Assembly: GCA_963817915.1 (NCBI GenBank)
Contig: CAWFQL010000012.1
Span: forward strand, 608,001-672,000
DNA: 64,000 nt
From: an uncultured candidate division Zixibacteria bacterium
Lineage (GTDB): Bacteria > Zixibacteria > MSB-5A5 > UBA10806
Direction of reading: 5' to 3'
The notes beneath the pieces were generated by a model. The model was not told where the DNA came from, searched no databases, and worked only from the letters and a program-made list of their open reading frames with translations. The translations under genes and the position numbers were made by a program. Positions 1 to 4,050 of this stretch are shown here, in pieces; the stretch's first letter is position 1, and each line of letters begins with the position of its first letter.

Positions 1-1476
1 TATAAGACATTGTTCGAACTTTCGACATTAATATCATCTCAAAATGATATCGAAGATATCCTGCCCAATGTTGTTCAGTCGACCGCGGAATTGCTCAATT
101 GCGATCATGCTGTTTTGCAGATGGTTGATGAGGACGGCGAAATACTTCTTCAAGTCAATTCCGAGGGAGCCGATGGCAAGCCAAGCAATTACGCGCCATC
201 CCGAAAAATTTCCGATGCCGTTATGAGCACCGGCGATCCGGTCTTGATCGAATCGACCAATAATGATGACTGCGGATGCACTCTTTGCTTCCCGCTTAAA
301 TCCGGCGAAAATGTCTGCGGTCTTCTACATGTGGTTCGTTCGAAAAAGGCCTTCTCCCCATCGGAGATGGAGTTGCTGAAGACGCTTTCGGGGCGAATAG
401 GGCTTTCGGTTGAATCCAATCTCATACTCTCAGACCTTGCCAATTCGCGGGAAACATTGATCGAGGATCTTCGCGATAGATATGATTTTGAGGAGATCAT
501 CGGCAATTCGCCGGAAATCGCCAGAGTACTGGCGACAATCGCCGATGTTGCCGAAACCGAAAGCGCCGTATTAATTGAAGGCGAGTCGGGGACGGGCAAG
601 GAACTGCTGGCTCGTGCCCTGCATAATAATTCGAAACGAAAAGATCAGCCGTTCGTGGCGATCAACTGCGCGGCAATTCCCGAGACTCTGCTCGAATCGG
701 AGTTGTTCGGATATGAGAAGGGCGCGTTCACCGGAGCAGTAGCCCGCAAATTGGGAAAATTCGATCTCGCCAATGACGGTACTATATTCCTCGATGAGAT
801 TGGCGAGCTGACACCGTTGCTTCAAGTCAAGCTGCTTAGATTTCTTCAATCGCATGAATTCGAGCCGCTCGGCTCCACATCGGTGAAAATAGCCAATGTC
901 AGAATAATTTCGGCCACCAAAAAGGACCTTGGCAAAATGGTCGAATCGGGTGAATTCCGCGATGATCTATATTATCGTATCAATGTCATCGCGGTTAGAT
1001 TGCCGTCATTATCCGAGCGAATCAGCGACATCGATATTCTGGCTAATCATTTTTTGAAAAAATATGCTGAAAAAAATAGCAAAAAAATCAAGGCCATCGA
1101 TGATATGGCGTTGAGCTTTCTAAAGGAATACAATTATCCCGGCAATATACGCGAGCTCGAAAATATAATTGAAAGAGCGGTTGTGCTCTGCAAGGGGGAT
1201 ATTTTAAGCTCAGCTGATTTGCCTGATTGTGTAAAGAAAAATAGCAAAGAAATAGAAAAACCGCCCGCGTCGGCTAAGGAACTCCAGGAGCACACAAAGA
1301 AGATATGGCGGGAAACAATTTTACCTCTCGAGCGAAATTTCGTGCTGCGAATGTTGGAAGCAAGCAGCGGTAATATTTCCGCCGCCGCCAGGCAAGCAGG
1401 GATGCATAGGAAGCAATTTCAACGAATTTTGCGCCGATGCGGTCTTCCTGCAAATGGGCAAAATCAGGATTCATAG
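1..1476 (+). CDS. Sigma-54-dependent transcriptional activator (GAF + AAA+ + Fis-type HTH), 5'-truncated by the window edge
   Basis: Walker [15 protein letters not shown] loop (EKGAFTGA), Walker [28 protein letters not shown]-terminal [16 protein letters not shown]. The frame is open from base 1. Confidence 0.95.
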
Positions 1477-1503
1477 AGTCTTTTTATAAATATATTTCTC
1501 CAA

Positions 1504-1521
1504 TGCGACAAACGTGTCGCA
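1504..1521. promoter_or_regulatory. Palindromic upstream activator site 1 (TGCGACA-N4-TGTCGCA)
   Basis: Perfect 7-4-7 inverted repeat about 170-185 bp upstream of a sigma-54 promoter and just downstream of a bEBP gene. Confidence 0.7.
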
Positions 1522-1568
1522 ACCTATTTTGATAGGGGAGTTTTACAATTTTCATAACTATCATATAA

Positions 1569-1594
1569 AAAATGCGACAGCGGTGACGCATTTT
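1569..1594. promoter_or_regulatory. Palindromic upstream activator site 2 (AAAATGCGACA-GCGG-TGACGCATTTT)
   Basis: Second copy of the same motif with 1 mismatch, 69 bp from site 1. Confidence 0.7.
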
Positions 1595-1688
1595 CATATC
1601 TTATTGGCTAATAACGAGATTCGTGAAATTAGTTGTATCTTGTTATGGTTTAATGGATTACGCTTTTGTGCGAGTTATTTTTGATGAT

Positions 1689-1703
1689 TGGCACGATATT
1701 TGC
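1689..1703 (+). promoter_or_regulatory. Sigma-54 -24/-12 promoter
   Basis: TGGCAC-GATAT-TTGC is an exact match to TGGCAC-N5-TTGC. Confidence 0.85.
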
Positions 1704-1728
1704 GTTTAATAATGATTCGGTGAAGTGT

Positions 1729-2124
1729 ATGAAAGAACAAAAGTTAGCGACAAAGCCAAACTCGGTTGACATTGACCTTCAAAATCAAGTCATGGAAGCG
1801 GCGCTTGAGGTCCACAAAAATATGGGTCTGGGTTTCGGGTCTGAAGAATATGGCTGGGCTCTTGCCTATGAATTTGGACTCCGCAATATACCTTTCGAGA
1901 GAAAGAAGAATGTGAAGTTATCGTATAAGGGCGCGGTTGCCGGAGAATACAATGTTGATTTTGTCATAGGGAATACTCTGATCGTATCGATTTCAACAGG
2001 GGACCATTTGACAGATATGGATGAGGCTAAATTAAAGAGCATACTTAGAGCGATAAAAATGAAAACCGGACTAACAGTTAACTTTTCCAAGGACATCTTG
2101 GAAATTAGAACGGTGGAACGTTGA
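1729..2124 (+). CDS. GxxExxY-family (PD-(D/E)xK-like) protein with degenerate catalytic motifs
   Basis: AALEVHKNMGLGFGSEEY, YKG..GEYNVDFVI and GLTVNF match the family layout. ATG 1729 chosen because it lies downstream of the sigma-54 promoter. Confidence 0.8.
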   Translation: MKEQKLATKPNSVDIDLQNQVMEAALEVHKNMGLGFGSEEYGWALAYEFGLRNIPFERKKNVKLSYKGAVAGEYNVDFVIGNTLIVSISTGDHLTDMDEAKLKSILRAIKMKTGLTVNFSKDILEIRTVER

Positions 2125-2145
2125 GTGCCGAAGGGAGGTGAAACC

Positions 2146-2211
2146 ATGCCGGCAAAGAAGAAAGCTGCAAAGAAGAAAGCCACAAAGAAGGCTGCCAAGA
2201 AGAAAAAATAA
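2146..2211 (+). CDS. 21-aa Lys/Ala-rich basic micropeptide MPAKKKAAKKKATKKAAKKKK (not in the ORF track)
   Basis: Perfect SD GGAGGTGA at 2134-2141, ATG 2146, TAA 2209-2211, terminator immediately downstream. Confidence 0.75.
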   Translation: MPAKKKAAKKKATKKAAKKKK

Positions 2212-2235
2212 TTACTGGTAAATAGCCTTATTTAT

Positions 2236-2261
2236 AAAGTCCGCTCCGTGCGGACTTTTTT
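2236..2261 (+). terminator. Rho-independent terminator
   Basis: AAAGTCCGC-tccgt-GCGGACTTT followed by a T run. Confidence 0.8.
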
Positions 2262-2301
2262 ATTTGAATTTCATGCCGATTTAATTATAGTCTGTAGTTC
2301 T

Positions 2302-2670
2302 ATGACAAAAGTAAGACAAAAATATTGGTGGCTCACCCTTGTATGGGCGGCGCTCATACTTACTGTATCATCAATTCCCAATTTATCAACACCATCGCTG
2401 GGAATTACATTCGCAGATAAAATAGCGCATTTCGGTGAATATTTTATTTTTGGAGTATTGGTGGGTTATAGCCTCTTAATCAGATTGCCAAAGAGCATCA
2501 CCTTATTTTCATATTCAGCTATTATCTGTGGAGTATTTGGGATACTCGACGAGATTCATCAGCATTTTATCAGCGGAAGAACCGCAGACCCGTTAGATGC
2601 CCTCGCGGATATTCTGGGATCGGCCGCGGGCATCGCGGTCTATATTTGGTGGAAAAGGCGCCATTCTTGA
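2302..2670 (+). CDS. VanZ family membrane protein
   Basis: DKIAHFGEY, DEIHQHFISGRTADPLDALAD motifs and hydrophobic helices. Confidence 0.88.
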   Translation: MTKVRQKYWWLTLVWAALILTVSSIPNLSTPSLGITFADKIAHFGEYFIFGVLVGYSLLIRLPKSITLFSYSAIICGVFGILDEIHQHFISGRTADPLDALADILGSAAGIAVYIWWKRRHS

Positions 2671-2757: not shown

Positions 2758-4050
2758 ATGGCAGAGCAAAAAATTAAAGCTATCTATGGAACTAAGGACA
2801 TTCTGCCGCCGGAATCCAATCTTTGGCTTCGGGTAATCTCAACTATTGCTCGAATTGCCTCTGAATATAATTACCATTTTATAAATCCTCCGATATTCGA
2901 GGCTACAGAGCTTTTCGCACGCGGAATCGGGGAAACTACCGATGTCGTATCGAAAGAAATGTATACATTCAACGATCAAGGCAATAGATCGCTTACGTTG
3001 AGACCTGAGGGCACCGCCGGGGTTGTCAGGGCTTATATTGAGCATTCCATGTGGGCCGCGCAGGGGTTGACCAAATTCTGGTATCTCGGTCCGATGTTTC
3101 GCCAGGAACGGCCTCAGGCGGGGAGGTTCCGTCAATTCCATCAATTCGGTATCGAGGCTATCGGCTCTCTTGATCCGGCTATCGACGCCGAAATTATCGA
3201 TCTCAATTATCGAATATTACAAAGACTTGGAATCGAAAATCTCGAAGTGCATATAAATTCAGTAGGGATGCCTGAAGACAGAAAACGGCATAAGGACGCA
3301 TTCGTAAAATTCGTGGAGCCGGAGCTTCCGGCGTTCTGTGCCGATTGCCAGAGAAGATTTCAACTGAATCCGCTCAGAATGTTCGACTGCAAGGAAAAAT
3401 CCTGCCAGAAAATCCTGGCTGACGCTCCGGTAATTTTTGATTTTCTCTCAAATGAAAATCACGAACACTTTGATCAGGTTGTCGAATATTTGGGAATGGC
3501 TGAAGTTCCATTCCATAAGGATAAGAGAATGGTAAGAGGATTGGATTATTATTCCCGTACCGCCTGGGAAATCAAATCATCCAAGTTGGGCGCGCAGGAT
3601 TCCCTTTCCGGCGGTGGGCGATATGATTTGTTGGTCGAACAGCTCGGCGGGCCCCCAACGCCCGCTATCGGATTTGCGGCAGGTATTGAACGAATCGTCC
3701 TGGCAATGAGCTCGGAGGATGAACAGACGACGGAGAATTTGTTCGGTTTTTATGTCGTGCTGAGCAGCTCGGAATACAAATCCGAGGCATTCAGACTTGC
3801 GACCAAAATCAGGAGTCTGGGTATTCCAGCCGATATAGATTATTTAAGGCGGTCTATGAAGGCCCAGATGAAACAAGCTGATAAGAGCGGCCTCAGCCAT
3901 GCGATCATACTGGCCGAAAACGAGCTTGCCCGGGGAGAAGTAATTATCAAGGATTTGCGAAATTCGGAGCAGATGGAAATAAAGCTGGATTATATTTATG
4001 GTTTTACAAATTCCGATCAACTTGGAGAGATAATTGGGCATATCAGATAA
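2758..4050 (+). CDS. hisS: Histidine--tRNA ligase
   Basis: LRPEGTAG, FRQERPQAGRFRQFHQ, RGLDYY, GGGRYD, GFAAGIER. Confidence 0.97.
   Translation: MAEQKIKAIYGTKDILPPESNLWLRVISTIARIASEYNYHFINPPIFEATELFARGIGETTDVVSKEMYTFNDQGNRSLTLRPEGTAGVVRAYIEHSMWAAQGLTKFWYLGPMFRQERPQAGRFRQFHQFGIEAIGSLDPAIDAEIIDLNYRILQRLGIENLEVHINSVGMPEDRKRHKDAFVKFVEPELPAFCADCQRRFQLNPLRMFDCKEKSCQKILADAPVIFDFLSNENHEHFDQVVEYLGMAEVPFHKDKRMVRGLDYYSRTAWEIKSSKLGAQDSLSGGGRYDLLVEQLGGPPTPAIGFAAGIERIVLAMSSEDEQTTENLFGFYVVLSSSEYKSEAFRLATKIRSLGIPADIDYLRRSMKAQMKQADKSGLSHAIILAENELARGEVIIKDLRNSEQMEIKLDYIYGFTNSDQLGEIIGHIR

Follow-up and report, generated by a model that had tools for sequence, protein, structure and literature searches.

A sigma-54 promoter stays silent until its activator acts on it. 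In systems controlled by bacterial enhancer-binding proteins (bEBPs) of the NifA/FhlA/NorR type, which carry GAF, AAA+ (GAFTGA), and helix–turn–helix (HTH) domains in that order, two dyads lie 100–180 bp 5′ of a GG-N10-GC promoter, and the regulator gene sits beside its target. The same layout is found, together with the same domain order if a subthreshold C-terminal HTH match is counted, at the start of the stretch of 64,000 nucleotides from a candidate division Zixibacteria bacterium that was analyzed here (the window, G000:C12:608001–672000, from a source assembly of 3.33 Mb in 22 contigs; G denotes genomes, L loci, and f1, f2, etc., families of Zixibacteria). The genes behind the promoter encode a protein of the GxxExxY family, which is probably catalytically dead, and a 21-residue lysine-rich peptide. 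We conclude that this is very probably a real operon under sigma-54/bEBP control, whereas our confidence is only about even that the whole is best explained as a dedicated sigma-54 circuit, shared by several families of Zixibacteria, with the polycation as its core effector. The module is real, conserved, and apparently undescribed, with ordinary regulatory logic and an unusual output; a literature search returned no published description of such a module.

The chlamydial proteins Hc1 and Hc2 are basic DNA-binding proteins of a condensed-nucleoid stage. Like Hc2 (HctB, PF07382), the Burkholderia-type H1-like proteins (NF038053), and Coxiella Hq1/ScvA, the Zixibacteria polycation is Lys/Ala-rich, built from repeats, variable in length, and highly basic, and the production of those proteins is stage- or condition-specific, as that of the polycation would be. 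The Coxiella protein ScvA/Hq1 is described as a very small basic DNA-binding protein tied to the condensed-nucleoid stage (PMC4766238). The Zixibacteria protein, a putative DNA binder, differs from these three in its predicted control by sigma-54 and a bEBP and in its pairing with a pseudo-nuclease. Another related arrangement is RtcR-RtcBA, in which a dedicated bEBP likewise stands beside a small sigma-54 operon with nucleic-acid-related products, and the AAA+/HTH part of the Zixibacteria bEBP matches the RtcR_PspF models of PADLOC. The sensor here is, however, a GAF domain, whereas that of RtcR is CARF, and the products are unrelated to RtcB and RtcA.

All the parts that a sequence-only reading had placed in this region, namely, the bEBP, two dyads, the promoter, the GxxExxY ORF (open reading frame), the small ORF, and the terminator, were found where it had placed them (Table 1). 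The bEBP gene starts approximately 300 to 340 nucleotides 5′ of the window. Its product matches Sigma54_activat (PF00158, E 3.5e-70) and AAA_lid_14, and the Walker A motif GESGTGK and the GAFTGA motif can be read in the translation. The C-terminal HTH_8 match (residues 443–475, E 4.2e-4) scored 20.4 bits, just short of the cut-off of 22; this conserved segment changes along with the dyad half-site, as described later. Compared with NifA, FhlA, and NorR, the protein has an extra N-terminal region of ~115 residues, which has no Pfam match and looks coiled-coil-like by eye, not by tool. The nearest solved structure to the sensor by sequence is the GAF domain of an adenylate cyclase (1ykd), a weak match (E 1.6e-5). 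An assignment as NifA was ruled out (TIGR01817, 373.3 bits against a cut-off of 528.85), and the protein stayed below every NCBIfam equivalog cut-off. Whereas the NifA site is TGT-N10-ACA, the dyad here is TGCGAC-N6-GTCGCA and the predicted regulon is a single operon. The source genome encodes rpoN and contains ~15 full-length genes for sigma-54 activators.

The dyads and the promoter are rare strings. The dyad pattern, with up to two mismatches allowed, matched the window twice, compared with 0.10 matches expected in shuffled sequences, and none of 100 shuffles contained two or more. The two candidate upstream activator sequences, UAS1 and UAS2, are the only dyad sites with at most one mismatch in the whole genome of 3.33 Mb. 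The promoter string occurs once in the window (0.08 expected) and five times in the genome as a strict match, and its GG and GC are exactly 10 nucleotides apart. If transcription starts at the predicted position near 1715, the geometry of the locus gives a transcript of ~545 nucleotides. The third, imperfect dyad between UAS2 and the promoter, which emerged from an alignment of 15 intergenic regions, may be bound by a DNA-bending protein or by another regulator.

Table 1. Features of the module and of the genes that follow it, in window coordinates
Feature	Position	Strand	Details
bEBP ORF	1–1476	+	5′-truncated by the window; 3′ 491 codons; full ORF ~592–604 residues
bEBP, GAF domain	~46–414		
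bEBP, AAA+ domain	~496–996		with GAFTGA
bEBP, C-terminal HTH	~1327–1425		match just below cut-off
Distal dyad (UAS1)	1504–1521		TGCGACA-AACG-TGTCGCA, TGCGACAAACGTGTCGCA; 0 mismatches; center 177 bp 5′ of the first base of TGGCAC
Proximal dyad (UAS2)	1573–1590		TGCGACA-GCGG-TGACGCA, TGCGACAGCGGTGACGCA; 1 mismatch; center 108 bp 5′ of TGGCAC
Third conserved imperfect dyad	1597–1622		TTATCTTRTTG-N5-7-CAAYRGGAT
Sigma-54 promoter	1689–1703	+	TGGCAC-N5-TTGC, TGGCACGATATTTGC; exact; predicted start near 1714–1716
GxxExxY/PDDEXK_3 pseudo-nuclease	1729–2124	+	131 residues; single copy in the genome
Shine-Dalgarno sequence	2133–2141	+	GGGAGGTGA; strong; for the small ORF
Polycationic small ORF	2146–2211	+	MPAKKKAAKKKATKKAAKKKK; 21 residues, 12 of them Lys; starts MPAKKK
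Intrinsic terminator	2236–2265	+	9-bp stem and 5-nucleotide loop (hairpin 2236–2258), T-run
VanZ-family gene	2264–2670		own sigma-70-like promoter TTGAAT-16-TATAGT (2264–2291); 3′ of the module terminator
hisS	2758–4050		after VanZ

Conservation of the arrangement was assessed in relatives. GxxExxY orthologs with 42 to 100% identity were present in 22 of 41 genomes (G000 and 40 relatives). Twenty loci were fetched, the window's own included, and 19 of them have an ortholog of the bEBP (54–69% identity) immediately upstream, in the same orientation. Two dyads, TGGCA(C/T)-N5-TTGC, the ribosome-binding sequence GGAGGT(G/A), and a lysine-rich ORF were found in all 20. A wider scan, limited to one genome per species, yielded 48 loci; wherever the records name a lineage it is Zixibacteria, except for metagenome-assembled genomes labeled “uncultured Ignavibacteria” or “Terriglobales.” The activator adjoins the module in 29 of these 48 loci. 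The pattern [TC]GGCA[CT]-N5-TTGC identified the promoter in 47 of the 48, and allowing G at the first base as well brings the count to all 48; with three f2 loci added, [TCG]GGCA[CT]-N5-TTGC lies upstream in each of the 51. Under a strict criterion, both dyads were found in 33 of the 51 loci, one in 15, and none in three (L022, L042, and L056), and a looser pattern revealed two dyads in L022. The dyads always lie ~81 to 108 and ~151 to 176 bp 5′ of the promoter, with conserved arms and with spacers that vary among loci. Counterparts of UAS1 and UAS2 are conserved in related loci at 169 to 176 and 101 to 108 bp, respectively. Hence, the linkage among homologs that the sequence-only reading had proposed to look for exists, and its regulatory interpretation, that the bEBP acts through the two dyads on the −24/−12 promoter of a bicistronic operon, gains strong support from conservation, position, uniqueness, and the co-variation between protein and DNA.

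This co-variation concerns the half-sites of the dyads and the presumed recognition helix of the activator. The half-site is TGCGAC in f1, f2, and f3, and TGCAAC or TGTAAC in lineages in which the activator is adjacent and the promoter lies 75 to 99 nucleotides before the gene; where the activator is unlinked, the half-site is TGTAAC. The helix reads MHR(K/R)Q(F/L)QR in proteins that accompany the TGCGAC group; elsewhere it is MHRVELQR or MHRVELHR. Such co-variation is as expected of a cognate pair; it also follows the phylogeny and is not independent proof. The description of the module as self-contained holds for the loci with an adjacent activator and fails in one large family, f18, where the ortholog of the activator is encoded on another contig or, in one closed genome, ~500 kb from the module.

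Even where the two are unlinked, the activator and the module are found in the same families. Among 201 genomes of the phylum, the sensor region of the activator (its first 259 residues) had matches at E ≤1e-10 in 39, and TIGR04256 had matches in 37, of which 36 were above the cut-off. Both were present in 34 genomes, neither in 159, the activator alone in five (G014, G019, G020, G022, and G185), and GxxExxY alone in three (G058, G163, and G190, the last below the cut-off). The positive families are f1, f2, f8, f12, f18, f3, and f6, and the activator was found in none of the genomes of the large families f9 (0/73), f16 (0/21), f13 (0/12), f10 (0/12), and f5 (0/17). These phyletic counts are descriptive, as kin are not independent. 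In G058 (C14:41669–42004) and G163 (C2:137838–138176), GxxExxY proteins of the module type (105–111 bits) occur without a sensor match at this threshold, and in G163 a lysine-rich ORF lies beside the gene; in both genomes, the activator may have been missed or may be divergent.

A search with the pattern of the ORF start revealed copies of the module in f2 genomes that do not have GxxExxY (G014, G019, and G022; loci L075–L077). The activator of these loci shares 46 to 47% identity over residues ~71 to 595, the promoter is present, and the strict criterion finds two dyads in L075 and L077 and one in L076. A non-coding leader of ~190 to 220 nucleotides, a Shine-Dalgarno sequence, an MPAKKK peptide of 20 to 21 residues, and a terminator come next, followed by VanZ and aspS. 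tblastn detected no remnant of GxxExxY in L075 to L077, the single match having an E value of 17. Since three genomes keep the activator, dyads, promoter, and peptide without GxxExxY, the polycation is the constant, core output, and the pseudo-nuclease is dispensable. The nuclease-fold protein and the basic peptide had been proposed as a joint output; they are the usual pair, but the former has been lost in these three genomes.

Apart from the initiator methionine, the 21-residue peptide contains no acidic, aromatic, or large aliphatic residue. The sequence GGAGGT(G/A) found before the small ORF in all 20 fetched loci has no such independent weight in a larger set of 52 loci, because the ORF finder used there required GGAGG. 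In each of the 52 loci, this finder called a K/R-rich ORF preceded by GGAGG, and the ORF is intact in 51 (that of L064 runs off the end of its contig). Complete small ORFs encode 15 to 146 residues (median 29) with a K+R content of 47 to 68%, and an acidic residue occurs in only one of the 52. They mostly start with MPAKKK and in some cases with MPMKKK, MVMKRKK, or MAVAKKR, with GTG and TTG start codons in f18. The proteins are built from pentads (KKKTA, KKKVA, KKKAT), and their length varies in pentad repeats. Within the first 49 codons, the congeners L009 and L010 differ by 19 synonymous and three non-synonymous changes, and in 12 f1 loci AAG accounts for 192 of 276 lysine codons (70%), compared with 86 of 168 (51%) in the neighboring gene. 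Judged from these sequence comparisons, the small ORF is under protein-level selection, with avoidance of long A-runs.

The ribosome-binding site of the small ORF is near perfect, whereas the GxxExxY gene is preceded by a weak, GGTGA-like site at best, so the polycation should be made in excess. Without hydrophobic or acidic residues and without a signal peptide, it is most probably a cytoplasmic, disordered binder of polyanions. The 21-residue peptide had no match in Pfam or NCBIfam. A hairpin with a T-run was found by a simple heuristic in 37 of 52 loci. A contig of 159 nucleotides from a metatranscriptome library, with seven differences, spans 2061 to 2218 and covers the GxxExxY stop codon and the small ORF in full; it is compatible with co-transcription in a relative and amounts to a weak hint. 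None of the sequencing runs searched contained more than 11% of the sampled words, and most matches were low-complexity lysine-codon stretches from other organisms.

Starts of the MPAKKK type also occur as N-terminal tags on other Zixibacteria proteins (L078–L089). Going by sequence reading, these are Cys-rich zinc-ribbon-like proteins (34–64 residues), small SWIB-like proteins (55–149 residues), and a homolog of ribosomal protein S1 (>530 residues). No sigma-54 promoter was found within 420 nucleotides upstream of these genes.

By hidden Markov model and by predicted fold, the first gene product belongs to the same family as the canonical GxxExxY proteins (TIGR04256, 88.8 bits against a cut-off of 35; PF13366, E 1.5e-22, 80.5 bits against 22). 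We know of no member of this family with a tested function, and a literature search on GxxExxY and PDDEXK_3 returned nothing that addresses it. The E of the ExK motif is required for metal-dependent cleavage in the PD-(D/E)xK superfamily. In the window protein, D77 is kept and ExK reads S-I-S, so that both the catalytic E and K are gone, and the eponymous motif is altered to G35-F-G-S38-E-E-Y41, with S in place of E. The E of ExK is absent from all nine module-type proteins aligned with five canonical ones and from 20 of 20 orthologs, where S, M, L, N, or T replaces it. The K of ExK is also gone in f1 and f2, and the E of GxxE in f1, f2, and f3; the latter residue is kept in f8, f12, and f18 (GFQESAY) and in the canonical paralogs. 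In addition, the Q of the following helix is replaced by K in module-type proteins. These proteins score 83 to 111 bits against TIGR04256 and five canonical Zixibacteria paralogs 129 to 140 bits; the canonical paralogs keep G-x-x-E-x-x-Y, D, and V-E-I-K. The earlier suggestion that the protein has no active site is thus borne out as far as an alignment allows, and the module protein is probably catalytically dead. The 22 invariant columns across 20 orthologs indicate that it is nevertheless under constraint.

An AlphaFold (AF2) model of the protein, based on an alignment of 37 rows, has a pLDDT of 86.6, a pTM of 0.77, and the order α-α-β-β-β-α-β-β that typifies the fold. The best Foldseek matches of the model are Cas4 SSO0001 (E 1.5e-4), LHK exonuclease, RecE, MGME1, lambda exonuclease, and Hjc. 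A profile search against sequences of solved structures gave nothing credible, the best match being a ribosomal protein (E 0.041). A second, canonical GxxExxY paralog is encoded in f12, f18, and f8 (L070–L074), at positions unrelated to the sigma-54 module.

Combining these results, we propose that the GAF activator would bind the two dyads ~105 and ~173 bp 5′ of the −24 element and, upon a signal sensed by its N-terminal coiled-coil/GAF region, would open the otherwise silent TGGCAC-N5-TTGC promoter. The predicted bicistronic mRNA would yield the disabled PD-(D/E)xK (GxxExxY) protein and a cytoplasmic (KKKTA)n-type polycation. The polycation, as the putative core effector, would most likely coat a cellular polyanion, most probably DNA, and the outcome might be compaction of the nucleoid, protection, or global silencing, as with histone-H1-tail-like bacterial proteins. 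The pseudo-nuclease would most likely serve as a non-cleaving, nucleic-acid-binding helper that is not essential. Tight silence of a sigma-54 promoter suits a product that is harmful at the wrong time, and the nuclease fold of the partner points to DNA as the target. DNA binding and compaction are suggested by composition, by this fold, and by analogy; we consider the chances evenly balanced that the polycation binds nucleic acid and think it possible, though rather doubtful, that it compacts the nucleoid specifically.

Several observations weigh against this proposal. A polycation is no more prone to bind DNA than RNA, ribosomes, polyphosphate, or membranes. The resemblance to histone H1-like proteins is one of composition: two of three longer orthologs (62–116 residues) reach 10 to 12 bits against HC2 (PF07382; cut-off 40) and the third has no match, and the three reach 10 to 18 bits against NF038053 (cut-off 80). 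With net charges between −3 and +5 among orthologs, the pseudo-nuclease is close to neutral and shows no sign of a DNA-binding surface. Catalytic residues can migrate in PD-(D/E)xK enzymes. A search for fused or longer forms of GxxExxY found one canonical member of 265 residues (30% identity) and no fusion to a lysine-rich tail, which is weak evidence. On the regulatory side, the co-variation and the phyletic co-occurrence are confounded by shared ancestry, and the metatranscriptome contig comes from a relative and may reflect carry-over of DNA. Lastly, the lysine-rich frame of L062 is open but has no in-frame start near the Shine-Dalgarno sequence, the initial call there having been in the wrong frame.

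Among other targets for the polycation, RNA or the ribosome deserves the most attention: the polycation could be an RNA chaperone or an inducible accessory or hibernation factor of the ribosome, with the pseudo-nuclease binding RNA. Very small basic components of the ribosome are known (bS21, bS22, bTHX, and Sra), K-rich N-termini of the MPAKKK type occur in the same phylum on ribosomal protein S1 and on small nucleic-acid-binding proteins, and some PD-(D/E)xK folds act on RNA, a tRNA splicing endonuclease being among the weaker fold matches. The best fold matches, however, are DNA nucleases, a tenfold range in length (15–146 residues) would be unusual for a fit to a defined ribosomal site, and the patchy distribution in the phylum argues against a core ribosomal role, so we regard this explanation as improbable. 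A peptide that works extracytoplasmically, or whose target is extracellular DNA or a polyanion other than nucleic acid (polyphosphate or envelope polymers), might serve, for instance, in a matrix or as an antimicrobial polycation, and such a role would fit the extreme cationic composition and the conserved downstream gene for a VanZ-family membrane protein. That gene lies beyond the terminator and has its own sigma-70-like promoter, though, and the peptide has neither a signal peptide nor a hydrophobic residue, the operon contains no gene for a transporter or for processing, and the partner has a cytoplasmic nuclease fold; we think such a role very unlikely. The chance is slimmer still that the module is a stress, defense, or abortive-infection device, in which a second-messenger-sensing GAF activator would turn on a growth-arresting polycation with the pseudo-nuclease as adaptor or moderator. 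A tightly closed sigma-54 promoter does suit a toxic product, the nearest solved relative of the sensor is, weakly, a GAF domain of the cyclic-nucleotide type, and the defense library contains RtcR-type bEBP models. The PADLOC matches are nonetheless confined to the generic AAA+/HTH part (RtcR/PspF-type), none of three GxxExxY proteins matches any PADLOC model, and the locus is single-copy, vertically conserved within families, and set among stable housekeeping genes (nuo, hisS or aspS) rather than in a variable island.

Two further explanations deny the small ORF or the dyads their presumed function. A run of lysine codons directly before a terminator hairpin bears a superficial likeness to amino-acid attenuators, and the ORF could be a cis-regulatory leader that senses lysine or Lys-tRNA instead of encoding a functional protein. 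Yet it comes last in the operon, the genes downstream (VanZ, hisS or aspS, or PTS IIC/IID) are unrelated to lysine, the terminator lies 22 to 70 nucleotides past the stop codon and shows no evident alternative pairing, and the ORF combines its wide range of lengths with a strong Shine-Dalgarno sequence and a conserved MPAKKK start; we give this idea hardly any credence. The palindromes could be RNA hairpins, such as a terminator of the activator gene, and not enhancers, and a simple scan did list 1504 to 1521 as terminator-like. This is scarcely credible given that the arms are conserved while the loops vary without compensatory changes of the RNA type, that two copies stand at fixed distances from the promoter, and that loci whose activator gene is elsewhere in the genome still have the dyads before the promoter.

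If the proposed circuit with a DNA-coating polycation is true, it would provide a testable example of a signal-inducible, histone-tail-like polycation in an uncultured sediment phylum. The first gene offers a clear example of a pseudo-nuclease that has been conserved, and the second represents a class of genes for 15 to 146 residues that size cut-offs for ORFs may miss. The circuit is compact and defined, with a single regulator, one promoter, and two sites of 18 bp, and a copy of it in a laboratory host could be used to search for both the signal and the target. The naturally occurring series of half-sites and recognition helices is material for studies on the evolution of bEBP specificity. 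More speculatively, and with little probability in our estimate, sigma-54-gated polylysine-like proteins could be a general, overlooked “protamine switch” of bacteria, in which a promoter opened by a signal floods the cell with a disordered polycation, leading to condensation of the chromosome or phase separation of nucleic acids and then to dormancy; in Zixibacteria, a nuclease fold would have been recruited and disarmed to target or moderate the polycation. Metagenomes were scanned for a sigma-54 promoter directly before a Shine-Dalgarno sequence and an M-x-x-K-K-K ORF, a pattern that proved too loose to bear on whether the theme extends across phyla: it returned at least 119 stretches, 80 of which were fetched, and one of the 80 ORFs (L144) was K/R-rich (≥40%) at a meaningful length, one more being a fragment of eight residues. 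L144 encodes a K/R-rich (47%) repeat protein of 93 residues, 52 nucleotides behind TGGCAC-N5-TTGC. The other ORFs were rejected as ordinary proteins that start with MxxKKK, such as receivers and histidine kinases.

In the neighborhood of the module, ORF translations indicate a minus-strand NADH dehydrogenase (nuo-like) cluster (G000:C12:599999–607279) that is divergent from the activator gene. VanZ is a conserved 3′ neighbor of the module in several families and is preceded in f18 by inserted genes resembling those for phosphotransferase system (PTS) components IIC and IID. A comparison of the terminator with Rfam gave only a subthreshold match to RyhB, which was dismissed. The metagenome scan also uncovered two recurrent arrangements of a different kind. 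In L098, L100, L103, L104, and ~25 further loci, a sigma-54 promoter lies directly before a gene for a stand-alone receiver of ~128 residues (M..KKK(V/I)LLIDDDKDF), often with a bEBP gene, and in another set it precedes a gene for a membrane sensor of ~610 residues (MTLKKKILIGYG...).

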